Positions 4,023 to 25,978 are shown, counted from the stretch's first letter. The stretch is DNA of 64,000 bases from a virus (IMGVR_UViG_3300033143_004212:1-64000), one strand, 5' to 3'. Notes: generated by a model not told the origin, from the sequence alone. Made by a program: numbers and translations.

Positions 4023-4204
4023 TTTCCTGCTTTTTTGGGAAAAATCTATAGTAAAATACAAGTACAGATATCTTATCAATATCTGTATTTTGCGTGGCAT
4101 CTTGGGGTCGGTGTATTTTCGCAATAAAAAAAGAGAGGAAGATAAGTCCACCGGAGTATTATCTCCTCTGTACCCACCTTATACTCTCTTTAATAATTAT
4201 ATTA

Positions 4205-4447
4205 CTATGCTTCTTCTATTACCTCTGCTTCTGCTTCGTCTTCGATTACTACTTCTAATCTTTTAGTTTTAACGATTACTTTAACAACGATATCTAATTC
4301 TCCATCTCTTACTAAGAACTCTCCACTAGATAAATCTACTAAGATTTCATCTTCTCTAGCTTCAAAACCTTTTGCAAGTCTAGCTTTAACATCCTCACGT
4401 GCTTTTGTTGCGATTTCTTTTTTAGTTAATTCTTTAATAACAGCCAT
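4205..4447 (-). CDS. Small acidic protein (family shared with 6229-6465 and 8728-9000)
   Basis: GGAG RBS; own promoter TTGACT-17-TATAAT at 4536-4508. Confidence 0.8.
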   Translation of the reverse strand: MAVIKELTKKEIATKAREDVKARLAKGFEAREDEILVDLSSGEFLVRDGELDIVVKVIVKTKRLEVVIEDEAEAEVIEEA

Positions 4448-4556
4448 TTTGCACCTCTCCTTTTGTATTTTTTTTATTTTTTATTTTCTTTCCCTTAACT
4501 TACTTATATTATAACATATCTTCTCCCGAAAGTCAATAATAATTCTTAAAAATTTA

Positions 4557-4823
4557 TTAATTTCCGTAGGAAATTCTAATTGATTCTTCACGATGGATAT
4601 AATGGGAACCTTTATCTTCAAGATCTTTTATTTCAATTACTAAATCACTTCTTTCATACATACAGTAGATACCAATTTGTGCCATCCCTGCAACATATAA
4701 GTAATATAGTTTTAAAGCTTCTGCTTCAGTCCTTGCAACAAAAGTGATGATACCTCTTCCATTATAATCTTCATCCTCAGTTCCATATTCTTTAAATAGA
4801 TAACTAATTTTAAATTTTTTCAT
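4557..4823 (-). CDS. Hypothetical protein
   Basis: AAGGAG RBS; promoter TTGACT-17-TATAAT at 4878-4850. Confidence 0.75.
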   Translation of the reverse strand: MKKFKISYLFKEYGTEDEDYNGRGIITFVARTEAEALKLYYLYVAGMAQIGIYCMYERSDLVIEIKDLEDKGSHYIHREESIRISYGN

Positions 4824-5191
4824 TTTTCCCATCTCCTTTATCTATATATATTATATCATATCTTTACGTAAAAGTCAAGGGTTTTTTATAAGTATTTTCC
4901 TGGACATACGCCTTTTATAGCTAGTAAAGTGGTCGGGTAGAATTTCTGGAAGATTATGTAAATGGGGTCGGTGTAGGAGCGGTGTATAAAAATCCTGGTC
5001 GTGATGAGGGTCGGTGTAGGAGGGTCAAGGGGTCGGTGTATTAAGTTTTTATTTTGTATGTCAAGGGGTCGGTGTATTTTAGGGGTCGGTGTATTCCTAT
5101 ACTACGCCGATATCGGTGTACTACACCGCATTATCCGGTGTACCAATGAACAGAAAAAAATAGGAAGTAACTTCCTATTTTTCCTTAATTC

Positions 5192-5509
5192 TTAATTTTC
5201 ATTTAATTCGTCGAATGCGTCTAAAGTTAATTCTGATGTATTTCCAACTTCTACCAATCCTGTTTTTACTAATACTAAACGTTCTGCATTACTAATGTAG
5301 GTAAAAATAACTTTAACGTATTCATTTATTTGGATATAATCAGTACCGTAAATTACTCCATCAATTTCATCAAATTCCATAAGCTTTTTAACAAGGTCTC
5401 TAAATTCATTGGCTTCTTTTAAACTCATTACTCTTGAACCAATAGTTCCAATATTACCCATTTCTGTTACTCCTTCAAGTCTTACTGCTACTAAATCTGT
5501 AATTTTCAT
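5192..5509 (-). CDS. Hypothetical protein (105 aa)
   Basis: RBS; followed by terminator at ~5155-5182. Confidence 0.75.
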   Translation of the reverse strand: MKITDLVAVRLEGVTEMGNIGTIGSRVMSLKEANEFRDLVKKLMEFDEIDGVIYGTDYIQINEYVKVIFTYISNAERLVLVKTGLVEVGNTSELTLDAFDELNEN

Positions 5510-5522
5510 TTACTCCATCTCC

Positions 5523-5747
5523 TTAATAAGTGTAAATACTTTCCAATATTCTTACATGTACATCTGCATATTTCAAACCTTTTATAAAACCATTAATTTG
5601 TTCATCAATTTTATCATGGTAATTATCTCCAGATAAGATAACTTTATCCTTAACTTCGTCTCGCAATTGTACTGTACAATTCTCGTCTACTCCATCATCA
5701 TCTTGTAAATAATATTTTCTTAATATGATTGTTAATCTCATATTCAT
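5523..5747 (-). CDS. Hypothetical protein (74 aa)
   Basis: RBS and box promoter upstream. Confidence 0.75.
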   Translation of the reverse strand: MNMRLTIILRKYYLQDDDGVDENCTVQLRDEVKDKVILSGDNYHDKIDEQINGFIKGLKYADVHVRILESIYTY

Positions 5748-5953
5748 ATGCTCACTTCCTTTCTATATATATAGTATACCATGATATAGAGGTTTTTACA
5801 ACTATACGGTGTATCATACTTTATTTCCGGTGTATGTCCGGTGTACTATTCCCTTATACACCGTTTCTACACCGAATTCGGTGTACTACACCGGGTTTTA
5901 TCCTCTGATACACCGGGAATACACCGCAACTTAGACGTACAAAAAAAAGGAGA

Positions 5954-6184
5954 CTAAGCCCCTTTTTTTGTAATGATATCCATTAACTTCCTTTTCCCAT
6001 CTTCTACCAAAGCTTCTTGATATTTGATTTCGAGATATCCTTTCCAAGATTGGTAAAAAATGTGTCCTTTGGCAATAGCTTGTTGTTTGGTATAATTTGC
6101 CAAATTATCTTCCACCAAAGTTTTTCTTAATCTACCTTTGGTAGAATTTACCAACTGCTCCACTTTTTTATGAAGTTTCGCCAT
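5954..6184 (-). CDS. Hypothetical basic protein
   Basis: GGAGAGG RBS; terminator downstream. Confidence 0.7.
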   Translation of the reverse strand: MAKLHKKVEQLVNSTKGRLRKTLVEDNLANYTKQQAIAKGHIFYQSWKGYLEIKYQEALVEDGKRKLMDIITKKGA

Positions 6185-6228
6185 TATTACCTCTCCTTCC
6201 ATTTAGATGGAGAATAGGGAATAAATCC

Positions 6229-6465
6229 CTATTCGATAAAATCTACTTCTAAGATTCTGTCTTTTTTTTCAACTACTCTGAAAACGAAATCTTTTTTATC
6301 TCCCTTTTCATTTTCAAATTCTAGCACGATTCCTTCTTTGGTAAATTTTACCTCTTGCTCAAATTCTTCTGCAAGTAAGTTTGCAAGCTTTTCAAGTAAT
6401 TCGTCTCTTTTTGTAACTTTTACATTGATTTGCTTAGTTTTTGTATTCTTAACTAGTTTAGCCAT
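6229..6465 (-). CDS. Small protein (family shared with 4205-4447 and 8728-9000)
   Basis: AGGGAG RBS; stop fused to the shared terminator. Confidence 0.8.
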   Translation of the reverse strand: MAKLVKNTKTKQINVKVTKRDELLEKLANLLAEEFEQEVKFTKEGIVLEFENEKGDKKDFVFRVVEKKDRILEVDFIE

Positions 6466-6672
6466 TTATTTCACTCCCTTTATATAGTTTGTTATCTCTT
6501 ATCTATAACTAATTATACCATATATATACCTATTATTCAACTGTCCGGTGTATTTAGGGTGCGGTGTATACTTGAGTGCGGTGTATACTTGAGTGCGGTG
6601 TATAAGTAGAATAAGTGCGGTGTATCGGCAAAGTGTGGGGCATACGCCGACCCTATGCTATAAAAAAAAGAG

Positions 6673-7401
6673 CTAGTAAAGCTCTTTATGAATTTTTGCC
6701 ACTATTCGCCAAGGTTGGTTAATAATTCCTTTTGTGAATTTTTTGTGTTGTCTGTAACATTTTGCCATTATTGCCACTTCTATCTCTGTATCACTTAAAG
6801 CAGTGTGATTCTCAGAAAATTCCATATCTCCTGTAATATACCTATATCCAACTTCTGCATTTGTTAGTGGATTACATCCTTTAGTGTAAAGACCTAACTG
6901 ATTTACCATAAGATGGAAGCCTTTCTGAATATAGAGAGTTTCACAAGCTAATCCCCATATATCCTGTAATTTTACAGAAAATCTTAAAAACTTTTTACTT
7001 TCCTTAGAGCCGAATTGAGAATGTAAATATCTGGTAGTTGCTTTTAATGCTCGAATATCAAAACTGAGATTATATGCCAAAACTTCCTTTACATTCCATT
7101 TCTCTAATAAATCGTTAAATTCTTTTTTAGCTACTTTAAAAGGTACTTTACGCATTAAACGATTGGTAATTTTTTCCACATACATTGGTCGCTTACTTCC
7201 ATAATATGCCGAATTCATCATTTTTTTATTGTCAAAAATTTCCTTTATTACCCAATCTTTCTGTGCATAAATTTTACCTCGTTTGTCAGTAATTGTCACT
7301 CCTAAATCATATACCAAAGGGCTATCAAAGCAGCCTGCCGTCTCGGTGTCAAAAACTGCCAAATATTTCACTCTTTTATCATATTTTCCTTTTTTTGTCA
7401 T
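6673..7401 (-). CDS. DEDDh 3'-5' exonuclease
   Basis: Motifs FDTETAG, AYNLSFD, HTALSD. Confidence 0.85.
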   Translation of the reverse strand: MTKKGKYDKRVKYLAVFDTETAGCFDSPLVYDLGVTITDKRGKIYAQKDWVIKEIFDNKKMMNSAYYGSKRPMYVEKITNRLMRKVPFKVAKKEFNDLLEKWNVKEVLAYNLSFDIRALKATTRYLHSQFGSKESKKFLRFSVKLQDIWGLACETLYIQKGFHLMVNQLGLYTKGCNPLTNAEVGYRYITGDMEFSENHTALSDTEIEVAIMAKCYRQHKKFTKGIINQPWRIVAKIHKELY

Positions 7402-7638
7402 TATACCACTTCCTTCCAAATTCGTTTCGCTTGGCGTTCTCTATCTATAACTAATTATAGCATAGATAAGTGAATACTTCAAGTGTCCGGTGTATCTTGC
7501 TTGCGGTGTACTTCCGGTGTATTTCCGGTGTATTTTTAAAGAAAAAAATACATACACCGATTATACACCGAATTCGGTGTACTACACCGTAAGTTGCGGT
7601 GTACTGGTAAAATAAAAAAAATAGGGAATTAATCCCTA

Positions 7639-7974
7639 TTAACATGTAGTATTGTAAACAGTTAAAGTTACATCATAATCATTTTCTTCTAATAATTGGA
7701 ATTTCATAATGTGTAAATGCGTTCTTAATTCAAGTACAGATTCTTTAAAATCATTAGCAGATATAAAGTGCATTGGTTCGTCTGTTCCATCGTCAACAGT
7801 TATTATAAATAATAAATCCATTCCTGAAATGCTTTCCCATGTAAAAGTAACGGTAATAATATTTCTAGGGTCATCTATTGAAACACCATAAAAGCGACCA
7901 CCATCAATTTCACTATTTAAAATTTTATCTAAAATATCGTAATAAGTAATTTCTGGTAATTTTAAACTTAACAT
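7639..7974 (-). CDS. Hypothetical protein (111 aa)
   Basis: AAGGGAG RBS; terminator follows. Confidence 0.7.
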   Translation of the reverse strand: MLSLKLPEITYYDILDKILNSEIDGGRFYGVSIDDPRNIITVTFTWESISGMDLLFIITVDDGTDEPMHFISANDFKESVLELRTHLHIMKFQLLEENDYDVTLTVYNTTC

Positions 7975-7978
7975 ACAA

Positions 7979-8470
7979 TTACTCCCTTTCTTTATCTGCT
8001 AATACTTTTGCCATTCTAAAAGCATTTCTAGTTGCTTTTTTTTCTAGTTTAGTCGTATAGTAAAAATAATCCATAAAATCATTAGTAGCATGACAATCTT
8101 CTAAAAAATCCATTTCTTCTTTTTTTAATTCTAAATTGTAATTAAATTCTTCGGGATTATCTAAATAGTCTAACCAATGACCTAATTCATGTAATAGTAC
8201 AAATTCTGCGTAAGATAAATCTTTATTAATTTTTTGTAAAGTATCATATTCTATCCTATTCGTATAAGCGTCTATTGGAAGTTCTTGGAAATCTATTAAT
8301 TCTTCCATACTCATAGATACTCTTTTCCCTTCAATCCAAATACCACAACAGAAACCTTGTGAGAGATAAAGGTCGCCGAAAATTTCGGGATAATCTTTTT
8401 GCATTTTATAAAATAATTCTCGTACTTTAAACATATCTTCTTTTTTTACTATATAATTAGATTCAGTCAT
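7979..8470 (-). CDS. HEXXH zinc metallopeptidase-like protein (ImmA/IrrE-like); paralog of 11378-11860
   Basis: FVLLHELGHWLD ... LEKKA motif. Confidence 0.75.
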   Translation of the reverse strand: MTESNYIVKKEDMFKVRELFYKMQKDYPEIFGDLYLSQGFCCGIWIEGKRVSMSMEELIDFQELPIDAYTNRIEYDTLQKINKDLSYAEFVLLHELGHWLDYLDNPEEFNYNLELKKEEMDFLEDCHATNDFMDYFYYTTKLEKKATRNAFRMAKVLADKERE

Positions 8471-8727
8471 TCCATACACTCCCTTCCTTGTTTTATCCTA
8501 TAACTAATTATACCATATATATTATAATAAAGCAACCCATCGGTGTATTTCCGCCTTCAATCACGTATACACCGCACTTTTATTTTCTCTTGGTACACCG
8601 CAAATACACCGCACTTTTTGTACACCGGACTTTCTGTACACCGCACCATTGTAAAATTACTTGATTAGTGTTATACTATAAGTAGATAAAGAAGTGATAA
8701 TAAACTATAAAAAAGGAAGTGGAGAAA

Positions 8728-9000
8728 ATGACAGTTAAAGAGAAAAGTCAAAAGCAATTAGATAATGAATTAAGAGAAAGCATTAAAATTAGATTGGCAG
8801 AAGGTTTTGAAAATACTGATGAAGAAATGGTAATTGATAATGGTTCTTCATTAATTATTAGAGTTAATGATATTAATGTAGATGTTGAAGTAAAAATTAT
8901 TGTTAAGAAAAATCAATTTGATATTGAAATTGCAGAAGAAGAACCGGAAGAAGAACCGGAAGAAACAACAGAAGAACCGGAAGAAGAACCGGAAGAATAG
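8728..9000 (+). CDS. Small acidic protein with EEPEEE tail; inverted cassette
   Basis: Box promoter on + strand, RBS, shared terminator; similar to 4205-4447. Confidence 0.8.
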   Translation: MTVKEKSQKQLDNELRESIKIRLAEGFENTDEEMVIDNGSSLIIRVNDINVDVEVKIIVKKNQFDIEIAEEEPEEEPEETTEEPEEEPEE

Positions 9001-9020
9001 GGATTTATTCCCTTTCTTCT

Positions 9021-9222
9021 CTTAATTGGGATTTATTGGAAGATAAGTATTTGCTTTCGTAGTGTAATGAAGAATCGGACTAAATAGGTGGAGTTGCGAT
9101 ATCAAAAGGTACACACTAGCTTAACCAAAGTAGCCACCAGTCAAGGGAATCTTTAGGAGGTGCACACTCCTACTGTCTACCGAGCCAAAAGGATACTTAT
9201 CTCCCAGTAAATCCCAATTAAG
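9021..9222 (+). ncRNA. Candidate structured RNA enclosed by a 30-bp inverted repeat
   Basis: 9021-9050 pairs with 9193-9222 (28/30); internal stems GACT/AGTC, GGTGG/CCACC, TAGGAG/CTCCTA; no ORF. Confidence 0.55.
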
Positions 9223-9362
9223 GGATTTTTTTCTTTATGGAATCGTACACCGCATTATCCGGTGTATTTCCTGGTCGCGGTCGGCGTACTACACCGAATT
9301 CGGTGTATTTGCGGTGTAAAGTCGGTGTACTTGTAGGTAAAAAAAAGGAAGGATTTTCCTTT

Positions 9363-10133
9363 TTAGTCAATCCTTTCTATAATCATTTCTACATGCGTAT
9401 CTTCTTTTAAATCAATTCCAAAATCTTCCTCAATAGTATTTTTTATGAATTTAGGAAGATAAAGATTTAAATAAGTAATTTTGTAATTATCTGGTATTTT
9501 TGCAATTAATTCCTGTACTGTAATTGGTAAATAATTTTCTTTTACTTCTCTTTCCCAATTATTAATATATCTGTATTTTAATAAGTAATGAAGAAGATTT
9601 TTATTTGAAGTAATACTTCCCCAATTTTTCTCAAAATCTACAAGATTATCATTTTCTGCCATTTTTACTCTTCTTACAAGTTCTGGATTACTTAGTTTTT
9701 CTTGGGAGCTAACTATCATCATATCACGAATGACGATATATTTTGTATTAATTTTTTCAAATACTTCTTCCCAAAAATTAGAAGGATTGGAATAAGAATA
9801 AATTTCATGTATAATTGATGATAAGACTAAAACACTATTTTCTGTTTTTTCTTTTATGAATGAATCTAAATTATCAGTAAATATAATATCTTGATTATCT
9901 TTTTTTGCTTTTTCTAACATTTCTTGACAAATATCATACCCTATATATTTATAGTTTGGATATGAGAAATACATAGACTGTATAAATTTCAATAAAGTAC
10001 CATCTGCACAGCCATAGTCAAGAAAACTATCTGCATTTATTTTCCCTAAAAAGAACGCTTTTTCATATAATGATTTTTTCATAGCTTCAGTATATTCGTT
10101 TATATCTTTTATTTTATTATCTGTAATTTTCAT
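9363..10133 (-). CDS. Class I SAM-dependent methyltransferase
   Basis: LDYGCADG motif I, IGYDI motif II, LSSIIHE. Confidence 0.8.
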   Translation of the reverse strand: MKITDNKIKDINEYTEAMKKSLYEKAFFLGKINADSFLDYGCADGTLLKFIQSMYFSYPNYKYIGYDICQEMLEKAKKDNQDIIFTDNLDSFIKEKTENSVLVLSSIIHEIYSYSNPSNFWEEVFEKINTKYIVIRDMMIVSSQEKLSNPELVRRVKMAENDNLVDFEKNWGSITSNKNLLHYLLKYRYINNWEREVKENYLPITVQELIAKIPDNYKITYLNLYLPKFIKNTIEEDFGIDLKEDTHVEMIIERID

Positions 10134-10153
10134 AATATATCCTTTCATTGTAA

Positions 10154-10297
10154 TTATTTTACTTCTTCATAATCTTCTCCTGATACCCATTGCATATCTT
10201 TATTAGGAATACGTACTAAATACATTAAATAGAAACCATCAGCGTCAATGTAAATAACTGTAAATTCTTCTTTAGTCTTTTTATTTCTTACTTTCAT
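10154..10297 (-). CDS. Hypothetical protein (47 aa); below ORF-track cut-off
   Basis: AGGAG RBS just downstream of box promoter; MKVRNKKTKEEF...QWVSGEDYEEVK. Confidence 0.7.
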   Translation of the reverse strand: MKVRNKKTKEEFTVIYIDADGFYLMYLVRIPNKDMQWVSGEDYEEVK

Positions 10298-10480
10298 AGT
10301 ATATTCTCCTATCTATAATTAATTATATCATACTATAAAGAAAAATACAATCTTCCGGTGTATAAGACTTCCGGTGTATACTCGGTGTATAAAATATACG
10401 GTGTACTACACCGAATTCGGTGTATGTCCGGTGTAGAATCGGTGTATTGACAGTATAAAAAAATAGGGAATAAATCCCTA

Positions 10481-10945
10481 TTAAGCAACTTCTAGTAATT
10501 CTCTTAGAGTTTCTAAAATATGTTTTTCGTCTTTAGCAACTCCACCATAATTTTCCCATTTTTGTCTAATTTCTTCATTATCATCAAATAATAAACAATC
10601 TTGTAAATTTTTAGTAACATGTTGTTTTGGTGCTCCATACTGAACGCAATGAATTTCTTTTACCATTGGAAAATATTTACTTAACCAAGTTTTTTTATCT
10701 GCTCTGCATTGTGCTTTATATTCATCACTGGCAAACATTGGTAACCATGTAATAACCATAATTTCATATCCTTTAGCTTCCAATTGTTCACATAAACTGT
10801 TTAATTCTACCATATCTACCATTGGTTCAAGTTCATTGAAAATTGATTCAGCACTTCTTAATCTTTCTAGCCACCCATTAAAACCATATAAATTAGCAAC
10901 ATTTCCGTCCATATCAAATGCGATTCTTTTAATTTCTTTAGTCAT
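10481..10945 (-). CDS. HAD-superfamily hydrolase (5'(3')-deoxyribonucleotidase-like)
   Basis: FDMDG motif I, IT motif II, K, LFDDN motif IV. Confidence 0.8.
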   Translation of the reverse strand: MTKEIKRIAFDMDGNVANLYGFNGWLERLRSAESIFNELEPMVDMVELNSLCEQLEAKGYEIMVITWLPMFASDEYKAQCRADKKTWLSKYFPMVKEIHCVQYGAPKQHVTKNLQDCLLFDDNEEIRQKWENYGGVAKDEKHILETLRELLEVA

Positions 10946-10958
10946 TTTTTCCATCTCC

Positions 10959-11186
10959 TTACCATATAATTTGTATTGCATATCTATTATCACTTAATCT
11001 TATAATTGATTCAATCCATCTAATTAATTGTTTATATGTTAAATTTCTATAATGACAATTTTTTTTAGTCCTTCCGTTCCAATAGTAAATAGCATGATTA
11101 TTTTTTGCTCTATTCTCAAAACTAAAACATTTTGCCACTTCTAGCCAATCGTCTTTTCTAGTATAATCTACTCCAAATCTACGCAT
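10959..11186 (-). CDS. Hypothetical protein (75 aa)
   Basis: AAGGGAG RBS, box promoter. Confidence 0.7.
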   Translation of the reverse strand: MRRFGVDYTRKDDWLEVAKCFSFENRAKNNHAIYYWNGRTKKNCHYRNLTYKQLIRWIESIIRLSDNRYAIQIIW

Positions 11187-11377
11187 TGTTTATCGCTCCC
11201 TTTCTATATATATAGTATACCATATTAGATGTAAGTATTCAAGTATCCGGTGTATTATTTATTAAGTCCGGTGTATCTCCGGTGTACAGCTTATCATCGG
11301 CGTACTACACCGAATTCGGTGTATTTGCGGTGTACTTCCGGTGTATTAACAAACAAAAAAAAATAGGAAATTATTTC

Positions 11378-11860
11378 CTATTTTTCATCTGCTAATACTT
11401 TTGCCATTTTATAGGCATTTAAAGTTGCTCTTCTTTCTAATTTGCTAACAGTATAAAGATAGTTAATTAAATCTTCATGAATACAATGGTTTGTTAAAAA
11501 TCTCGAAATTTCTACTTTTTGTTCTGCGTTATATTCAAACTCTTCTGGATTATCTATATAATCTAACCAATGACCTAATTCATGTAATAATACAAATTCT
11601 GCAAAACATAAATCTTTATTAAATTTTTGGTATTCTTTATACCAAGGCATATATATATAATCATATGGAGGATTTAATATCTCATTTAATTCACTTAAGC
11701 TCATATATATTCTTTTAAGTTTAACATCTATGCAACAACGGCAACTTCTCTGAATTGTGAGGTCTCCGAAAATTTTAGGGTAAACATCTTGCATTTTATG
11801 AAATAAATCTATTGCTTTTCTTACGTCTCCTTTTTTTACCAATTCATCAGAATTTCTCAT
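11378..11860 (-). CDS. HEXXH metallopeptidase-like protein; paralog of 7979-8470
   Basis: AEFVLLHELGHWLDY identical to the paralog. Confidence 0.75.
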   Translation of the reverse strand: MRNSDELVKKGDVRKAIDLFHKMQDVYPKIFGDLTIQRSCRCCIDVKLKRIYMSLSELNEILNPPYDYIYMPWYKEYQKFNKDLCFAEFVLLHELGHWLDYIDNPEEFEYNAEQKVEISRFLTNHCIHEDLINYLYTVSKLERRATLNAYKMAKVLADEK

Positions 11861-12003
11861 TTTATTCTCCCTTTCTTGTTTTATCCTATAACTAATTATA
11901 CCATACATATTGGATTATTGCAATATTCCGGTGTATTTATTACAAGTACACCGTAAGTTCCGGTGTATTCTTAGTTTAAAAAAATAGGGAATGATTCCCT
12001 ATT

Positions 12004-12276
12004 TTAATCTTGTATTTCAGTTAAGTATCCTTGTTCTTTATATATTTTAAATAATGTTTCATTACTAAGAAATACCATTAAAAGAAAACCAATTAAATTT
12101 AATACAGGGAAAAGAAAAACTATCATAGATTTTATTTCTGCAAAAAGTTTTTGGGAAATACTTGCATTAGTATAAAATTCATATCCTATTTTCTTAATCT
12201 GTGTATTAAAATCTGCTAATCTAAAGAATGTGTATAATCTGAAACAAACACATATAATTACATATACTCTTAACAT
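12004..12276 (-). CDS. Membrane protein (2 TM)
   Basis: Hydrophobic segments, FPVLNL; GGAGG RBS. Confidence 0.7.
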   Translation of the reverse strand: MLRVYVIICVCFRLYTFFRLADFNTQIKKIGYEFYTNASISQKLFAEIKSMIVFLFPVLNLIGFLLMVFLSNETLFKIYKEQGYLTEIQD

Positions 12277-12482
12277 GATATATTACCTCCAAATATTTTA
12301 TTGTATTTTTCTTTTGTAATAAAAAGAATATTCTCATTTTCATAATCTTGATTGTCAAGAATTTCCAATACTTCTTCTTCTGTAACAACTAACCAACTAT
12401 ACATAACTATCATATCTACATATCTAACAGAAATCATTGTAACCAACATTTGCCTATATTCCATTACTCTTAAAGTTGACAT
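12270..12482 (-). CDS. Hypothetical protein
   Basis: AGGAGG RBS. Confidence 0.65.
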   Translation of the reverse strand: MSTLRVMEYRQMLVTMISVRYVDMIVMYSWLVVTEEEVLEILDNQDYENENILFITKEKYNKIFGGNISC

Positions 12483-12492
12483 AATTTACCTC

Positions 12493-12816
12493 CTACTTAA
12501 ACAAATTAGTATGTTTTACCAATACTATCGAATTGTAATATAATTTTTGGTCACAAGCTGAATATCTAAGAATTAAAGATATTGGAGCATGTTCAAAATT
12601 ATAAGGTAATAAATAAAATTTACAACTGTTTTGAGAAAAACAAACTAAAAATTTATGCCAACTATATTTATCATTCTCTTCAAATTTTACAATATCTCCC
12701 ACAAAAATTGGTTCTCTAGTTTGCTCACATTGTAAGCCAAAAAATACATCTTCCATAATTTTACTATGTTGTATAACTTTCTTAGTCAATTCAAATTCAA
12801 AATTTTCTGTTCTCAT
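12493..12816 (-). CDS. YopX-like protein
   Basis: GL...REPIFVGDIVK resembles the YopX EIYEGDIV motif. Confidence 0.55.
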   Translation of the reverse strand: MRTENFEFELTKKVIQHSKIMEDVFFGLQCEQTREPIFVGDIVKFEENDKYSWHKFLVCFSQNSCKFYLLPYNFEHAPISLILRYSACDQKLYYNSIVLVKHTNLFK

Positions 12817-12950
12817 TTCACACCCTTCCTTTCTATATAATAATTATACCATGATATAGAGGTAAATACAAGTGTCCGGTGTATTCGTCTTTAAATAATA
12901 CTAATACACCGCACGATTGAATAATACTTATATATATGTTATAATTAATT

Positions 12951-13048
12951 ATAGATAAGAGATAGATAACAACAGATAAAATCTGTGAAACACATAAATA
13001 TACCCTTTCTTAGTGGAGGTGGACTGTCGGTGGTCTGCCTTTACTTTC
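12951..13048 (+). ncRNA. Candidate ~100-nt small RNA from a box promoter
   Basis: Complete box promoter at 12905-12945, no ORF downstream, G-U-rich 14-bp hairpin at ~13012-13045. Confidence 0.5.
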
Positions 13049-13154
13049 GTATATATTATACACCGCTTTTTCCGGTGTACTACACCGAATTCGGTGTATT
13101 CCCGGTGTAAGGTCGGTGTACTTATGCTTAAAAAAAACTACCAATAAATGGTAG

Positions 13155-13583
13155 TTAAAATTGTTCTGGTAAATCATCCCAAGCTTTATTAGCTTGTTTT
13201 TCTCTTTCTTTATCTTTTGTTTCCAATAATATCCATTCTGTTCTTCTTCTTGCATGTTTTTCTAAAGCTGTAAATTTTTCTTTTTCTGTTAAATTATTAA
13301 ATCTATTCATATATTCTTCTTGACGACATCCAAATCCTAGGTCTCCTGTAAGTATTGAGTAACATGATGCAGTATAAATTGTTTCTTTATATGCTTCATT
13401 ATATATAAATTTTATATTCATATCAATCAAATATCTACATTTTCCTTTTTTATATGATATTAATCTAATATTTGCTTTTTCAATCCATTTTTTTTCAGAT
13501 ATTTTTATATAAATACAAAAACTAAATGCAGATATAATAATCATTGCAATAAATATATATCCTACTAATTCATTAAAAGCCAT
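13155..13583 (-). CDS. Membrane-anchored hypothetical protein
   Basis: N-terminal TM helix; RBS. Confidence 0.7.
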   Translation of the reverse strand: MAFNELVGYIFIAMIIISAFSFCIYIKISEKKWIEKANIRLISYKKGKCRYLIDMNIKFIYNEAYKETIYTASCYSILTGDLGFGCRQEEYMNRFNNLTEKEKFTALEKHARRRTEWILLETKDKEREKQANKAWDDLPEQF

Positions 13584-13598
13584 TTTGTACCTTCCTTT

Positions 13599-13781
13599 CT
13601 AGTATTTTACGTCCCATCTTAATTTTTCATAATTATAATTAAAAGCGGTGTAACATTTTTTACCATCTATAATCTTTGTAAATGTTTTAGTTTCATCAGT
13701 TGAGATATTTTCTTGATATTCCCATCCTTGACATTTCATTACTTCTAAAAATCTTCTACAAGCATGTTTTACTTTAGCCAT
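13599..13781 (-). CDS. Hypothetical protein (60 aa)
   Basis: AAGGAG RBS, box promoter. Confidence 0.7.
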   Translation of the reverse strand: MAKVKHACRRFLEVMKCQGWEYQENISTDETKTFTKIIDGKKCYTAFNYNYEKLRWDVKY

Positions 13782-13921
13782 AATATCTCCTTTCTATAGT
13801 TATATTATATCATATCACCAATAGAAAAGCAATGCTTCGGTGTATTAATTAGGCTTCGACCGCATTTTCCGGTGTATTCAATCTTTGCTTTTGGCATAAA
13901 AAAATAGGGAATAAATCCCTA

Positions 13922-14565
13922 TTATATAGCTATACATTGTCCTTTATAAAATTTACATCTTCCCGTATCACAAATTTTATATCCATTTTTACTTTTTATT
14001 ATATTATATAAGTTTAAATCTCTTGTTTCATATCCTGCACTATTAAATTCTTTTTTTATTTTCTTTATTTTCGATTCTATTCTATTTTCTTCTTTTATAG
14101 TATTAATTCTTTTTGCAATGCCTTTTTCTTGAATCATAATTATTTGATTTTTATATACAAATATATCTTCAACTTCAAGTAATTTTTTACCAAGCTTAGT
14201 ATCTTTTAACGTTTCATAATTTAGTGTTTCAATTACACTTTGGGGTCATCACAATCTTCTATAAAAAATTTAATTGATGATATAGAAGGTTTTAATTGTA
14301 AAATTTTAATAAAAGATAAATATTTTTTATTATTTATTGAATCGTTTTTAAACTCTTTTTCCAATTCTTGAGAAAGCTCACATATTTCTTCATCCATATA
14401 TCTATATTCACTTACCTCTTGTTCTTTCATAGATTCAATTTTAATAACATAATCTTCATTAAAAAAATAAACTTTTCTTCTTATCCCTTGACCTAAAAAA
14501 TCACATTCTTGTAAGTTGTCTATTTTTTCTTTAGCTTGCTCTCTCAATTTTAAATCTCTTTTCAC
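13922..14565 (-). pseudogene. Protein kinase-like gene split by a 1-nt frameshift near 14240
   Basis: N-part has FLGQGIRRKVY...YVIKIE; other frame continues QSVIETLNY...MIQEK...RDLNLYNI...ICDTG. Confidence 0.7.
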
Positions 14566-14809
14566 GTTTGTCACTCCCCTTCTATATATATAGTATAACA
14601 TATTATAGTAATTATTTCAAGCTTGCGGTGTATCCTGGTCGTAGCCGAGATACTGATAGTGGAGGGTCGGTGTATTAATATGGAAGTTACGGCGTATTTT
14701 CGGTGTACGGGTCGGTGTATTTCCTGCTCGCCCTCGGCGTACCGGTCGGTGTATGTACTTGTCGGTGTACCAGTCGGTGTATTGGGCATAAAAAAAATAG
14801 GGATTATCC

Positions 14810-15118
14810 CTATTGTAATCTACTAGTAACATCATATTGTGAAAAGTCGTTTCCACTAAAACAATATTCTCTGCTGAAATGTTGATAACTTACAAAAAAT
14901 CCATCAATTTGATATTGTCTAAAACCTACATATAATAATTCTCTATTAACCATTGCTTTAAAATGTGATACCAAATTAAAGGTACGTAAAACGTCATTTG
15001 TTGAACTATAAATTGTATACGCTACTTCTACTCTATTTTGTAATAGTAATTTTGAGATTATCACGCTTTTTCTAGTCATAAGCGTTTCTATTAAAGATTG
15101 TTGAACTTGATTTAACAT
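14810..15118 (-). CDS. Hypothetical protein (102 aa) with hairpin 5' leader
   Basis: AAGGGG RBS; stop fused to terminator. Confidence 0.7.
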   Translation of the reverse strand: MLNQVQQSLIETLMTRKSVIISKLLLQNRVEVAYTIYSSTNDVLRTFNLVSHFKAMVNRELLYVGFRQYQIDGFFVSYQHFSREYCFSGNDFSQYDVTSRLQ

Positions 15119-15606
15119 TTGATATCCCCTTTCAGTTGTAAGTATCTTCCATCGGTGTCCATAGATAGAAATAGGTCAAGCCAGAGACTAGTCGTTTAAC
15201 TTAACTCATTTCCTATCTATAACTAATTATAACATATTTCTCGCTTATTTGCTAGTTTGCGGTGTATTAAAGTTTTCCGGTGTATTCCCGGTGTATGTCC
15301 GGTGTATAAAATAGTTCCGGTGTATTTGCGGTGTATTTTCCTGGTCGTCCTCGGCATACGGAATATGGCCAACACTTTCCGGTGTATCTAAAGTCCGGTG
15401 TAAGGTCGGTGTACTACGCCGAAATCGGTGTAATGATTTTTCCAGGTCGTCCTCGGCGTACCGACTTTGGGTGGTACTTTCCGGTGTATAATTGGAAAAT
15501 AATGGAAGGAGTCGGTGTATAGGTCGGCGTATTCAGAAGGATCTTCCATTTATGGTAAATATTGGAAATTTCGATCCAAATAAAAAAAGGGAATAAATCC
15601 CTTTTC

Positions 15607-15891
15607 TTACAATAACTGGTAAGCCATATCTTCTGCCAAAAATTGGAAAACTGTATCAACTGGGAAATTATTCCAATCTTCGATTTTAGAAATGGGAATA
15701 TCATCCATTACTACCGCAACTTGGAATTTTACAATCCTACTAGTAGAATCTTCTATATCATCCATAATTTGGTGGAATACATTCGCACATTCTTTTCCAG
15801 GATTTCCCAAGTAATTTATAATATAAATTTTGGTTTCATTTACTTTTCCTGTAAATTGGATTTTAAATACTTTTTTTGCTCTGCTATACAT
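15607..15891 (-). CDS. Hypothetical protein
   Basis: AAGGAAGG RBS; terminator. Confidence 0.7.
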   Translation of the reverse strand: MYSRAKKVFKIQFTGKVNETKIYIINYLGNPGKECANVFHQIMDDIEDSTSRIVKFQVAVVMDDIPISKIEDWNNFPVDTVFQFLAEDMAYQLL

Positions 15892-15957
15892 AAAATACCT
15901 TCCTTTCAAATTTTTGGTAATTGTCGATGATTAGAGTAAAAGGGAATAAATCCCTTT

Positions 15958-16278
15958 TTACCATTTTAATACCTCTTCTGACTTAATTCGGAATTTATCT
16001 TCTAATTCAAAGGTAAATTTTAGGTCATATTCCAAATCTTGTAATAATCTATTAAATTTTAACTTAATCCATTGTTTTTCGGGTATTTCCCAAGTTTCTC
16101 TATAATTGGAAGTATATGTCATTTTACATTCGATCTCTATTTTTTCCTTTTCTGTTAAATTCTGTAATTCCTTTAATATGATATTTGTGGCTTCTTCTGT
16201 CTTAAATTCCTCATATAAGGGAATATAGTAAAATTTAGTCGGTTTTCCTTTTACTGTAACTGAATAACACTTTTTCAT
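15958..16278 (-). CDS. Hypothetical protein (106 aa)
   Basis: RBS; terminator. Confidence 0.7.
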   Translation of the reverse strand: MKKCYSVTVKGKPTKFYYIPLYEEFKTEEATNIILKELQNLTEKEKIEIECKMTYTSNYRETWEIPEKQWIKLKFNRLLQDLEYDLKFTFELEDKFRIKSEEVLKW

Positions 16279-16344
16279 GATTTTCCACCCTTTCCATATA
16301 TTGGTAACATATTAACTTCTTATGTAAGATTAGGGAATAATTCC

Positions 16345-16533
16345 CTAATCATTATCTAATTCTAAATTTTGGTAAGTTTCTCTAGCTTTCCTTAATAAGT
16401 CTTTTTCTGACAATTTTGGTAATTTTAACTCTTCATACGCTTCTACCAAACTTAGTAATTCATGGTTCTTTTGACTATTATTATCGATTCTGTTAAATAA
16501 TTCCTTTTCCCAACTTCTTACTGTATTTGTCAT
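16345..16533 (-). CDS. Hypothetical protein
   Basis: AGAGGGA RBS before MTNTVRSW. Confidence 0.65.
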   Translation of the reverse strand: MTNTVRSWEKELFNRIDNNSQKNHELLSLVEAYEELKLPKLSEKDLLRKARETYQNLELDND

Positions 16534-16626
16534 GATATTCCCTCTCTTCCTTATACTGGACATATGCCAGTTATTGTTAGTATATCCGGTTATTAGATGT
16601 ACTCCCACTAGGTGGGAGACTTGGAA

Positions 16627-17199
16627 TTAAATTCCAAGTACTCGTCTTACAATTGTTTTCCTTAATCGCATTTTATTTCCTACCTTTACAGTTTTTGCCT
16701 GTTCCATTAATATTGCTTTAAATTGCTTACGATCCATTTTATAACTATTAACCCAATTAATGTCAGTAATGAGATTTTCTAGCGAGATTACAAATATATC
16801 ACAATTCTGGTAATGCTTTAGGATTCTATTTACAAATTTGACATTACTTTCCTCTTCTATTCTTTTTATCTCAGAAATGGAAGGACTTGAGTTTTGTCCC
16901 AGATATTTGAATTGACATCTTTTACCATCATATACAAAGTCATACTGGCTAATTTTGTCAAAATTGGGATGTAATCCCAGTTGCATTTGTAGGTATAATT
17001 CTGCAAGTTTTCCACGATTTACCTGTTTTTTAAATCCATTACTCTCTTCAATTCCTAGATATGGAATTAATTGGTTAAAAACCCTCTGATTATTCTTTTG
17101 AAACATTTCTCTCCAGTTATTACTTTCTTTGGTACTAATGGCAATTTTTGGATTCTTTACTGTTTCTCTCTTTTCTGGTATATTATGTCTATTTGTCAT
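16627..17199 (-). CDS. Basic protein with possible PD-(D/E)XK nuclease-like core
   Basis: GKLAE...YDF...QFK pattern; promoter TTGTAT-17-TATAAT at 17308-17280. Confidence 0.6.
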   Translation of the reverse strand: MTNRHNIPEKRETVKNPKIAISTKESNNWREMFQKNNQRVFNQLIPYLGIEESNGFKKQVNRGKLAELYLQMQLGLHPNFDKISQYDFVYDGKRCQFKYLGQNSSPSISEIKRIEEESNVKFVNRILKHYQNCDIFVISLENLITDINWVNSYKMDRKQFKAILMEQAKTVKVGNKMRLRKTIVRRVLGI

Positions 17200-17384
17200 G
17201 ATTTTCCAACTCCCTTTCTGTTAATTATTTCCAATTCGTCCGGTGTAGAAACTGGGCATATCTCCCACTTCCTACCTTAATTATACCATACATTTTCCGG
17301 TAATACAAGACCAAATATGTAAAAAAATAGGCGATTCAAAAAGTATTTTCATATTTACCAGATCTTCCAGTACCTACCAGTTAA

Positions 17385-17516
17385 TTGTGTGTATTGTTTG
17401 GCGCAATAAGATAGTTGAATGGGGATAGGGGATGGCTTGCAATTGTGTATGTTGTTTGACACAACTTATACAAATGACGGGGGTAGAATACGACTTGCAG
17501 TTGTGTGTATTGTTTG
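17385..17516 (+). repeat. Degenerate 58-bp tandem repeat with core TTGTGTRTRTTGTTTG x3
   Basis: Cores at 17385, 17443, 17501. Confidence 0.8.
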
Positions 17517-18033
17517 AAAAATTCATACAATTCATATAATGTAAGCTTTTGACAGCTCTTACAATATCTACCAAAGCTTCCTGATCCTGCTTTTTATGGG
17601 GGTATCTGGAAGAACTGGGAGAGGGGGGTAGTTCTGGGAAAAATTCCCTGTAAAAAAATGGAAATCGGCGGGTGTGGCTCCATCCCCCCCCAATCAAATA
17701 TTATTTTCCACAGCGTACTAGCAAACCCTTTTTTTCCAGGACATAGCACTATTTGCTTTGCATTTCCCTATGTTCAATCCCCTTGTTACCAAATCCCCTT
17801 TTCAAATCCTAGGTGCAATTTCTTTAAGACCGCAGTGCGCTAGTTATTATTCATTGTTATTATCCATTCCCCAAAATTCATTCTCCCATAATTTTCTCTG
17901 GTCCTATGTTTGTGTTTCTTTTTAAAATATGATATAATATAAGTGAGATAAAGAAAAAGGGGCATAGTATTATAATATATATTATATTATATATTATATT
18001 ATATATCTCTTTATAAACAAAAGGAGCAAAAGG

Positions 18034-18425: not shown

Positions 18426-19487
18426 ATTCTAAAATTACAACTAGACCAAACGTTACGTACCCAAGAGGAAAGAATGCAGTTAATAAAAAATATTATAAAT
18501 AATCCTGAATTCAAATCAAATGCTTGAGTACTAGAAATATTAACTAATTATGTTTTATTTCTTAAACCAAAGAAAGACCGCAGTATAATAAGTAATAACA
18601 GAGCAAAAACAATTTACAAAAGAGAGACTTCTACAGAAGGTCTCCAAAAGAAGTTTGAAACAGGAGAAGATGCGATTTATAATTTAATTAGAAATGATAA
18701 AAATATGATACTTTCTCCAAAAGTAACAATAACTCCAAATGATTTGCGCAAATATCCTGAATTACAACAATTACGAGATGCGATTGATACGTGAGATGAA
18801 CAAATGAAAATAAAACAATTTTCGGGGAAGAACTTATATAAAGCAAAGAAAGCAATTATAGAAATGCGCCAAATGCAGTATATAATAAAAGAAGCTTTAA
18901 CAAAACCATCAAGAGCAAAATCATTTATGAAAACACCAATTAATACACAATTTACTAAGGACACATGGTATGTGAAAGAAAACGGAGAATTGAAGATTGT
19001 CAGCGAAGATGCTATAAATTTTAAGAACCCTAAGCATATAGAAATGCTTATTTATTACTATCCTAAACTTATAGATTCGGCTTGAGACTTTAACAGTAGT
19101 GAGATGAAACACCTACTATGGGACTTAGAAAATTTGATTAATGCGGCACTAAAGGAAAATAAAGCTTGAAAAGATATCTTACTTTGGAAAATAGACAAGA
19201 GAACAAATAAAGAGATTAAAGTGATGTTGAGTGAGGAACATAACTTAATTTATTCAGAAGAATATATATCTACGATATATAGAAAGAAAATACCGGCATA
19301 TATTGCATCTTACTATGCAAAAGATATGGAAGAATGAACTTATACTTTTAAAATAAAAGGTAGTTACAAAAAATGTAATAGGTGTGAAGAAATCAAATTA
19401 GCAAATAATGATAACTTTTCACTAAATAAAGGTAGCAGAGATGGCTTCTATTCAATCTGCAAGTGCTGTCGTAAGAAGAAGAAATAA
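18426..19487 (+). CDS. Conserved phage protein with C-terminal Zn-finger; five TGA=Trp
   Basis: One frame apart from TGA at 18525, 18792, 19083, 19167, 19335; ends KKCNRC...ICKCCRKKKK; start codon uncertain (ATT after GGTGG). Confidence 0.7.
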
Positions 19488-22976: not shown

Positions 22977-23049
22977 TAACTAAATCCCTTCTCTTTTTTA
23001 TGAAAATGTGGTATAATTATATAAACGGTAGGAGGTGTAAAAAGATAAA

Positions 23050-24535: not shown

Positions 24536-25978
24536 ATGGGAAAAAGAGATACAACAAAATTCTCTAATTGCTCTGTTAAAGTAACTTTTGTAGAAACAAA
24601 ATATGATTCAGATACGAATCCTCTTTTTTCAAAAGTTAAAATTAATTTCCTTTATAAGGGAATGAATAGGAATGGAAGTTATATTTCTAAACGAGTTGCG
24701 GAAAAAATGGGAGCGGCTATTAGTTACACTCCAATCATTGGAGAATTTTTAAAAGAAAAAGAAGATTTTGGAACACATGGTGGAAAATTAACTATTACAA
24801 GCGAAGATGTAATTTATGAAGAAACAACTGTTCCATACGGAGTTGTTGGCGCGGCTGACAATCTTTGGTGGGAAGACGTAGAAGATGATGATGGGAATGT
24901 ACAATCATATCTAACTACTTGAGGTTATTTATGGACTAAAAGATATCCTGATGCTGAAGTAGTTTTATCTGATAATAACTGGCAATCAATGGAGCTAGAT
25001 AATGACAGTGTGAAAGGGAGATGGATTCAAAAAAAAGATAGTGAAGATTTCTATTTTAAAATTGATGAAGCTCTTATTAGTGCTTTCTGCATCTTAGGAC
25101 CTGATGTTCGTCCTGCTTTTGAAAGATCGCAAGTTAAAAGTTTTTCACTAGCAGAAAATATGGGTAGCAGTTTTAAAGAAGAGTTTGAAGAAATGAAAGA
25201 AGATTTTAAAACTTTCTTATTTACTTTGGGCGAAAAAGAACAAACTGATACTGATAATCTTAATAATGATTTAGAGGGAGGAACAGATTCTATGTTATTT
25301 AAATTAAATATCGAAAATCCAAGTTCATTATTCTCTAGTTTAAATCCAGAAGATATTGCAACTAAGATCATCGTTAATGAAACAGATAACACTGTTACTT
25401 ACTTTGATTTAGAAGACGGTAAATTCTATGCTAGACAATTTACTATGAATGAGGAAGAAGAGATAGTTTGGGCAGAAGAAGAACCTGTAGTTTATGAATA
25501 TGGTCAACTTCCAAATGCTGAATTAGAGCAATCTAATGCAGAATTAACAGAAGATGTCGCTATTTTAAAAAATGCAGAAATCGATTTTGAAGCTCAAATA
25601 GAAACAAAAGATGGCTCTATAGTAGAACTTAATAAAACTGTTGAAACATTAAATGGAACAATAGAAACATTAAATACTTCTATTGGAGAATATGAAGAAT
25701 ATAAAAAAGAAAAAGTAGCAGAAGAGAAAGAAAGTTTAATTGCAGGATTTGCAGAAAAACTATCTGAAGAAGTTATCGAATCAATCGAAAAAGAAATTAA
25801 TAATTTCACATTAGAAGAAATCGAAGCTAAACTTATTCGTGCTTTTTATGAAGAAAACAAGGGTGATGATATAGACAACTCTAAATTCACTCATAATAAT
25901 AAACCACATAAATCAAGTAATACACCTGATTGGTTTAAAGCTGTTAAAACAGTGGTTAATAAGAACGAAGAAAAATAA
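24536..25978 (+). CDS. Prohead protease/scaffold fusion (TGA=Trp at 24920)
   Basis: NRNGS, QSMEL, FCILG motifs followed by acidic coiled coil; fragments in frame. Confidence 0.75.

Follow-up and report, generated by a model that had tools for sequence, protein, structure and literature searches.

Which signal could place a whole block of small accessory genes in a phage genome under common control, and what would read it? The stretch of DNA analysed here, IMGVR_UViG_3300033143_004212:1-64000 (the window), comprises 64,000 nucleotides (nt) of a viral genome of 83,404 base pairs (bp) and 30% G+C (G000). It contains a region of small gene cassettes in which the heptamer TACACCG (the box) recurs upstream of the promoters. 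An initial annotation had proposed that a dedicated factor switches on the entire accessory region through this heptamer. The part of this proposal that stands is that the promoters form a distinct, phage-specific class, in which the box keeps a strict register with the –10 element and is invariant in related phages. Judging from the DNA alone, we consider it highly probable that a dedicated trans-acting factor reads the box; the direction in which such a factor would act is considerably less certain and is weighed below.

A heptamer in fixed register with the promoters of the cassette region

We scanned the sequence with a regular expression (TACACCG, 5 nt, TTGnnn or TAGnnn, 17 nt ending in TGn, and TATAAT or TATACT) and recovered the same 13 promoters that the initial annotation had listed, all of them (13/13) reading TACACCG-N5-hexamer-N17-(TGn)-TATAAT/TATACT. 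Eleven are on the minus strand and two, at 8637 and 12905, on the plus strand, where the box is inverted together with the promoter, as had been described. At all 13 promoters the end of the box lies exactly 25 nt before the TG of TGnTATA(A/C)T, never 24 or 26 nt, with no box nearer, which agrees with the proposed position of –47 to –41. Between 5 and 16 kilobases (kb), 15 sites match TGnTA[TC]A[AC]T, 13 of which are boxed. The two unboxed sites are no promoters: the one at 6091 is antisense and inside a coding region, and the one at 7405 belongs to the ribosome-site and start-codon context of an exonuclease gene.

The 5΄ ends of the minus-strand boxes, from 15266 down to 5813, are the higher of the two box coordinates given here. 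The promoter at 5773–5813 (box 5807–5813; –35 TTGTAA, TGG TATACT) drives 5747–5192, which encodes proteins of 74 and 105 amino acids (aa), and that at 6512–6552 (box 6546–6552; TTGAAT, TGG TATAAT) drives 6465–5954 (78 and 82 aa). A 248-aa protein with DnaQ-like motifs (7419–6673) is expressed from 7454–7494 (box 7488–7494; TTGAAG, TGC TATAAT), and 8479–7639 from 8507–8547 (box 8541–8547; TTGCTT, TGG TATAAT). The unit 10297–9363, which includes a methyltransferase, follows the promoter 10322–10362 (box 10356–10362; TTGTAT, TGA TATAAT); 11186–10481, which includes an NT5C-like nucleotidase, follows 11214–11254 (box 11248–11254; TTGAAT, TGG TATACT); and the gene of a HELGH-motif protein, 11908–11378, is driven from 11895–11935 (box 11929–11935; TTGCAA, TGG TATAAT). 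The promoter of 12816–12004, at 12843–12883 (box 12877–12883; TTGTAT, TGG TATAAT), stands back to back with the plus-strand promoter 12905–12945 (TTGAAT, TGT TATAAT), downstream of which there are only short reading frames (41–44 aa) or an RNA. The remaining minus-strand promoters are 13804–13844 (box 13838–13844; TTGCTT, TGA TATAAT), 14592–14632 (box 14626–14632; TTGAAA, TGT TATACT) and 15226–15266 (box 15260–15266; TAGCAA, TGT TATAAT), which drive 13781–13155, 14601–13922 and 15118–14810, respectively. The other plus-strand promoter, 8637–8677 (TTGTAA, TGT TATACT), has the flipped box and drives 8719–9000 (93 aa). These degenerate –35 hexamers are the same as those listed earlier.

The heptamer is present 94 times on both strands of the window, compared with 1.16 copies expected from shuffled sequences (shuffle maximum, 4). 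The interval 4109–17247 holds all 94 copies of the G000 genome, which are laid out as 14 intergenic arrays of 2–12 copies each and 3 single copies; approximately 80 of them, beyond the 13 promoter-proximal ones, are stacked between the small accessory genes. Within this boxed region the ratio of exact copies to all one-mismatch variants is 94 to 14, and TACGCCG accounts for 9 of the 14 variants. TACACCG had been correctly recognised as a motif but not in its full extent, the full conserved word being longer, about AATACACCG[C/G]A.

Conservation of the box architecture in related genomes

When viral contigs were scanned for box pairs with an 11-bp spacing, one real relative emerged, IMGVR_UViG_2597490295_000013 (G001), which is the same sequence as JRFF01000053.1, has a length of 127,832 bp and was binned with Candidatus Izimaplasma HR2. 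G001 is colinear with G000, with 70–78% nucleotide identity in the best-matching shared genes. It contains 88 boxes, 84 of them at 12.3–25.7 kb, against 5 copies of the reversed control word, and 17 of its promoters show the identical box architecture. Closer relatives were sought, and only G001 was found; other portal relatives are 24–25% identical. Two metagenome contigs that encode relatives of a 190-aa protein discussed below (L119 and L120) both carry arrays, and L119 has 3 promoters in register.

In the three sequences with registered promoters, 33 of 33 promoters (13 in G000, 17 in G001 and 3 in L119) have 25 nt between the end of the box and the TG, and at none of the 33 does a box overlap the core promoter, that is, the –35, spacer, –10 and start site. 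When orthologous intergenic regions were aligned, the boxes and the –10 elements were identical, whereas the –35 and the spacers drifted and the composition of the arrays differed. For example, TTGAAG at the 7494 promoter of G000 corresponds to TAGTAA in G001, and another –35 drifts from TTGTAT through TATTAT to TTGTAA. In the back-to-back pair, the distance from box to box is 28 bp in G000, 37 bp in G001 and 18 bp in L119, and each box keeps its 25 nt to its own TG. Four G001 promoters have no further box in the ~78 bp of upstream sequence shown, which indicates that one site is a sufficient unit.

The boxes lie preferentially on the gene strand (72/94 in G000 and 67/84 in G001). The commonest pair is direct with a spacing of 11 bp (30 pairs, 22 in G000 and 8 in G001). 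Convergent pairs are found at 14 bp (17 pairs, of the form TACACCG-N7-CGGTGTA) and, in G000 only, at 11 bp (6 pairs, TACACCGAATTCGGTGTA), and divergent pairs at 8 bp are also among the common types. Because boxes can be packed as closely as 8 bp, lie in every orientation and occur alone at four G001 promoters, each is probably read by a small domain acting as a monomer. Upstream of the promoters, the distances from box end to TG are 25 nt, then 41 or 46, 52 or 57, and 63 or 68 nt; in other words, a proximal box is followed by an 11-bp-spaced pair set 16 or 21 bp further upstream.

Such periodic direct repeats could also be read by a host transcription factor, for example one of the OmpR/PhoB type acting on 7+4-bp repeats with an 11-bp period, in which case the accessory genes would be tied to a host signal. 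The predominance of the direct 11-bp pair in both genomes fits this possibility, as does the failure to find an OmpR-type, sigma region 4 or XRE-type domain among the proteins of either phage. However, the 2.1-megabase bin of G001 has its 8 tandem pairs and its 17 composites of box and –10 exclusively on the phage contig, and this confinement argues against a host regulon, although the bin may not be the true host. This doubt arises because the phage has Amidase_3 endolysins, while Izimaplasma have no cell wall. Furthermore, we know of no regulator that reads TACACCG, and a literature search with the heptamer string returned only papers with titles and abstracts unrelated to regulators. A host-encoded reader is accordingly a doubtful explanation in our estimation. 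A scan of 185,579 species genomes for a triple-box pattern yielded mostly unrelated loci in other phyla, together with the G001 contig. With its gyrase, RNA ligase and structural genes, JRFF01000053.1 is itself a phage genome in the Izimaplasma HR2 bin, where it was either placed wrongly or hints at the host.

Weak –35 elements and the direction of regulation

The initial annotation had set the poor –35 elements of the boxed promoters against six box-less promoters (2339, 4536, 4878, 45084, 51449 and 59773), and these indeed read TTGACA or TTGACT. Two further box-less promoters with TTGACA or TTGACT are located past the window, at 75842 and 77705. A –35 that matches TTGACA at no fewer than five of six positions was found at 1 of 30 boxed promoters of G000 and G001, compared with 27 of 55 box-less intergenic TGnTATAAT sites (5–6 of 6 positions); the scores of the box-less sites are bimodal. 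The consensus of the boxed –35 elements in G001 is TAGTAA.

We compared this arrangement with that in a more distant phage, IMGVR_UViG_3300021431_000004 (G003), a complete genome of 130,060 bp with terminal repeats and 30–45% protein identity. The homologous block of G003 is on one strand and includes homologues of the exonuclease and NT5C. This block (40–54.5 kb) contains 40 promoters in 14.5 kb, 37 of which have TTGACA with a 17- or 18-nt spacer before TGnTATAAT, and only 3 boxes are present in the whole genome. The box-bearing lineage has therefore also lost the –35, as expected if the box compensates for it, and the contrast looks like a lineage trading constitutive early promoters for factor-controlled ones. 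The consensus promoters of G003, which form a very dense array, often lie behind an A-tract.

These features are consistent with the reading that we favour, namely, that a single dedicated factor docks at TACACCG and regulates the 13-kb block of accessory genes jointly, through class II-like activation; we hold this complete reading with about even confidence. One DNA-binding factor probably switches the accessory block as a unit, and the evidence that a factor bound at the box activates, instead of acting otherwise, is finely balanced. One box in fixed orientation at –47 to –41 has its centre about one helical turn upstream of the –35 centre, which would place it on the same face of the DNA as sigma region 4. 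The contacts of a bound factor would be with region 4 of sigma-A or the C-terminal domain of alpha in the host RNA polymerase, and would make up for the degenerate –35 where the extended –10 is perfect. This mechanism would be akin to class II activation, and functionally to the T4 MotA box. The upstream boxes (at +16 or +21, then in 11-bp steps) and the palindromic pairs would raise the local concentration of the factor or nucleate cooperative binding. What the sequences show directly is how the sites are arranged, that relatives keep this arrangement, that it is confined to the phage and that the –35 elements are weak; binding of a protein to the box, activation by this protein and its origin in the phage genome are inferred. 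One exact word in register with 13–17 promoters, with ~70–80 auxiliary copies, makes a very clean cis-regulatory code, and the phage lineage that has it is known only from metagenomes. The box could serve as a probe handle for fishing out the regulator, and the promoter plus operator as a compact, portable module.

Several observations weigh against activation by such a phage factor. The weak –35 had been regarded as a sign of activator dependence; the weakness itself is clear, but it is not proof on its own, since the box-less leader promoter of the first early operon (17280–17308, minus strand; TTGTAT-N17-TGG TATAAT; operon 17199–15607, with one box in the leader at 17241–17247) also has TTGTAT. 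Promoters that combine a weak –35 with an extended –10 may thus fire unaided, and the box could act negatively. The extra heptamers had been explained as cooperative loading sites, which does not hold as their sole role at weak promoters: in both G000 and G001, large arrays lie 90–260 bp upstream of consensus promoters, and weak-promoter activation leaves these arrays unexplained. Moreover, the +16 and +21 registers are half a helical turn apart, so that the upstream pairs do not all lie on one face of the DNA with the proximal box. Finally, Pfam and PHROG scans of ~60 G000 and 81 G001 extra-region proteins detected no early DNA-binding domain, and the completeness estimated by IMG/VR is 56% for G000 and 84% for G001.

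We therefore considered the opposite sign of regulation. The box could be the operator of a negative regulator, whose cooperative binding to the arrays blocks the UP-element/–35 side or silences the domain, and which shuts the accessory block off, for example at an early-to-middle switch; the promoters would then be active unaided through the extended –10. TRTGnTATAAT, plus TTGnnn in G000, may suffice for sigma-A, and the unboxed leader promoter is equally weak at –35. The arrays comprise up to 12 sites and are largest at both ends of the block, and the replication module has two winged-helix (MarR-like) proteins under the control of consensus promoters. In addition, where other phages have many asymmetric sites, the closest parallels are with repressors, namely, SPBRE/MrpR (PMC10516654) and the stoperators (PMC9283540). 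Nevertheless, 0 of 33 promoters have a box over the –35, spacer, –10 or start site, and the single site of four G001 promoters at –44 is in a poor position for repression. Pure repression would also give no advantage to losing the –35; it is nevertheless the boxed promoters whose –35 has decayed, and G003 keeps the consensus. No integrase or XRE-type repressor was found in G000 or G001. Taken together, we regard a negative operator as somewhat unlikely.

Search for a factor that reads the box

We searched both genomes for domains that might belong to the reader postulated above. Searches of G000 and G001 for OmpR-type (Trans_reg_C), sigma region 4 and XRE domains gave nothing above the curated cut-offs. 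In these genomes, at 56% and 84% completeness, MotA (PF09158), tyrosine recombinase (PF00589; MrpR may escape this Pfam model) and serine recombinase (PF00239) had no match, and the last had none in G003 either. The lack of a recombinase or an XRE-type helix-turn-helix protein in these searches makes a lysogeny repressor less likely.

The first gene of the early strand (16627–17199, minus strand) encodes a 190-aa protein with no Pfam match, which belongs to an 18-member metagenome family. This protein heads the region in 4 of 4 box-bearing sequences and is absent from box-less G003. Its structural model (predicted local distance difference test [pLDDT], 86) shows a weak likeness to PvuII, NhoI and I-Ssp6803I (Z 6.5; Foldseek E 0.07), and in the Atlas it neighbours restriction enzymes and T4 endonuclease IV. 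The family has an invariant D87...Q96-F-K98 (D...QxK) and a predicted PvuII-type restriction-endonuclease-like fold. We accordingly rejected this protein as the prime candidate for the factor; its model suggests that it is probably a nuclease, and it may act on host DNA. A 76-aa basic protein was set aside with no usable Atlas match, as were the small acidic-tail paralogues described below, whose model was poor (pLDDT 61) and uninformative.

The only clear DNA binders found are the two winged-helix (MarR-like) paralogues of the replication module (75430–75825 and 77332–77583), which are ~75% identical in G001 and have homologues also in G003. They are weak candidates for readers of the box. 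Because each follows a promoter with TAACTnn at –47 to –41, they may read this word instead. TAACTnn at –47 to –41 marks a second class of promoters, most of which lie in the replication module and many of which have TTGACT at –35. In terms of the first base of the –10 hexamer, these promoters are at 23012 (plus strand) and 59750 (minus strand) of the window, at 75842, 77705 and 81365 (minus strand) of the genome, and at 78095, 96061, 100030 and 107527 (minus strand) of G001. The word at the 81365 promoter is CAACTAT, and the background of TAACT is ~2 per kb per strand. Two TAACTnn promoters directly precede the winged-helix genes, which suggests autoregulation.

A 337-aa protein is encoded at the head of the structural-gene strand (18474–19487, plus strand, code 4). 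It matches PHROG 5767, which is annotated as a sigma factor (E 1.4e-50), and has no Pfam family; it may be a late sigma factor. The gene has five in-frame TGA codons, and the protein is 73% identical in G001 and 40% identical in G003. Encoded beside the region and retained in G001, it could be a phage sigma factor for which the box serves as upstream element. The promoters, however, have textbook sigma-A elements at –10 and –16, and the end of the box lies 28 bp upstream of the –10 hexamer, which is beyond the spacing of the sigma-70 family. G003 has the homologue but runs without the box system, with its 3 boxes genome-wide, and the in-frame TGA codons of the gene also speak against this role. 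We find this explanation scarcely credible.

Since no helix-turn-helix, winged-helix or ribbon-helix-helix domain was detectable among the early proteins, we also propose, as a speculative and on balance improbable form of the dedicated-factor reading, that a phage protein with a fold not yet recognised as DNA-binding takes over –35 recognition from –44, and that the end arrays make the 13-kb block an insulated, jointly switched domain. If true, such a reader would represent a new kind of promoter-specificity switch for the host sigma-A polymerase.

Organization of the cassette region and its surroundings

G000 is siphovirus-like, with a portal, a terminase and a tape-measure protein. Its DnaE-type polymerase is 47% identical to SPbeta YorL, and its portal is ~31% identical to those of large Bacillota phages; a megablast search of the region against GenBank phages gave no match. 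Reading-frame calls with code 4 restored full-length RNase H, ThyA, DHFR and other G000 proteins. The boxed region consists of 13 cassettes, in each of which a terminator is followed by an array, a promoter and 1–3 small genes. Terminator-like sites number 21, compared with 4.9 expected, with a common hairpin, AATAGGGATTTATTCCCTATT. The cargo includes the 248-aa protein, whose DnaQ-like exonuclease motifs were read by eye (no Pfam match), as well as the methyltransferase, the NT5C-like nucleotidase, two HELGH-motif paralogues and many proteins with no detectable relatives.

Such a standard chain of cassettes, with its excess of terminator-like sites and one common hairpin, could be explained with no regulator at all: the repeats would be inherited parts of a duplicated promoter–terminator cassette that provide homology for gene shuffling, and the palindromic pairs would form RNA hairpins. 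The genes carried by G000 and G001 differ and the modules are nonetheless retained, as this explanation would have it, and the PeSL cassettes of T4-type phages offer a precedent (PMC2839356, PMC4122927). However, seven bases are exact in ~180 copies over two genomes, while the intervening bases, the copy number and the order vary, and recombination homology needs none of that. Hairpins are impossible for direct repeats and single boxes; moreover, the arrays are largely untranscribed, because they sit after terminators and before promoters. An origin by duplication with no reader is therefore very improbable in our view.

The largest array, with 11 further boxes, is at the head of the cassette region (15278–15519, minus strand) and includes TACGCCG variants and the motif GACCAGGAA. 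The tail array (4969–5142, minus strand), with 9 boxes of a TACACCGACCCC flavour, is 90–260 bp upstream of the box-less consensus promoter 4878–4850, and its G001 counterpart (13651–13798) is upstream of a TTGACA promoter. Two orphan arrays contain 6 boxes each. One, at 9246–9329 (minus strand), follows the terminator of 9363–10148, and an inverted plus-strand unit lies between it and its promoter; the other, at 13059–13120 (minus strand), follows the terminator 13156–13136 and contains a nested palindrome, TACACCGAATTCGGTGTAGTACACCG. A second oriented motif, GACCAGGA(A), is found just upstream of some boxes, at 4993, 9269, 14633 and 15339 of the window (minus strand), often in the arrangement TACGCCGAnnnCGACCAGGAAA-TACACCG. 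This motif is also present in G001 (24673–25608) and is repeated in the non-coding gap of L120.

Two paralogues with the motif FVLLHELGHWLDY (HExxH, metalloprotease-like) are encoded in separate boxed cassettes at 7979–8479 and 11378–11908 (both minus strand). Three further paralogous small proteins, at 4205–4447 (minus strand), 6229–6465 (minus strand) and 8719–9000 (plus strand), consist of one helix followed by three strands; two of the three have acidic tails, and all three are kept in G001. One of them is under a consensus promoter and two are under boxed promoters. Between the terminator of 8719–9000 and a second intrinsic terminator, ~200 nt (9030–9240, plus strand) may encode a small RNA. 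This stretch folds with a long closing stem (z –2.67; 0 of 200 shuffles as good) and has no Rfam match; judged by coordinates, it is apparently absent from G001. Rfam and tRNA scans of the window found none.

At 17385–17516 and 17915–18021, three 16-nt direct repeats (TTGTGTGTATTGTTTG), 58 bp apart, are located beside an AT-rich inverted-repeat block. They sit where the early and late strands diverge, in a gap with no coding sequence, and a similar repeated word, caattgtgtgtattg, is present in the same gap of L120, not in that of L119. These repeats may be a replication origin or a control region.

Comparison with known systems

At Pho boxes and other sites of the OmpR/PhoB family, as well as for lambda CI at OR2 and CII at PRE, the activator is beside sigma region 4, and the sites are pairs that overlap or flank the –35. 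The boxes resemble OmpR/PhoB-type sites in having seven conserved and four variable bases every 11 bp next to a weak –35 (30 direct pairs). They differ in that a single box suffices and both orientations are used, and no such domain was found encoded in G000 or G001.

Stoperators are single 13–14-bp sites, within or between genes, that block elongation and have no tie to the –10. Those of cluster A mycobacteriophages are similar to the boxes in that dozens of asymmetric, monomer-read sites are biased to the direction of transcription (PMC9283540, PMC6550527), whereas the sites of G000 are in arrays after terminators and in fixed register with the –10. SPBRE of SPbeta is a 15-bp site with ten genome-wide binding peaks, one per promoter region, and its reader MrpR is a lysogeny repressor with a tyrosine-recombinase fold (PMC10516654). 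The two systems are alike in that a large Bacillota siphovirus repeats one element phage-wide, at about ten promoter regions, and differ in that G000 has 94 copies of a 7–11-bp word, in arrays and in strict register. In the PeSL cassettes of T4-type phages, a terminator hairpin and an early promoter likewise frame small genes of unknown function and variable content (PMC2839356, PMC4122927). PeSLs, however, use strong consensus sigma-70 promoters, with no factor box mentioned in the abstract (PMC2839356), and that layout is the one of G003, not of G000.

Functionally, the closest system is that of the T4 MotA-box middle promoters, which likewise combine an excellent host –10, often with TGn, with an asymmetric phage box at a fixed distance (PMC2988021, PMC6755090). 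The MotA box is ~9 bp long, asymmetric and read by a monomeric activator with sigma appropriation by MotA/AsiA (PMC2988021, PMC6755090); its centre is at –30, at a distance of 12 ± 1 bp from the –10, where it takes the place of –35 recognition and sigma region 4 is displaced (PMC2988021). The feature in common, a host sigma-A type –10 with a phage box at a fixed distance, is present at 33 of 33 promoters of the TACACCG class. The defining position differs: the TACACCG box is centred at –44 and not at –30, its end is 28 bp from the –10 hexamer, a TTG or TAG remnant is kept at –35, and extra boxes are arranged in arrays. As judged from these sequence features, the TACACCG class is a putatively factor-dependent phage promoter class of its own, a member of none of the MotA, PeSL, SPBRE/MrpR and stoperator systems.

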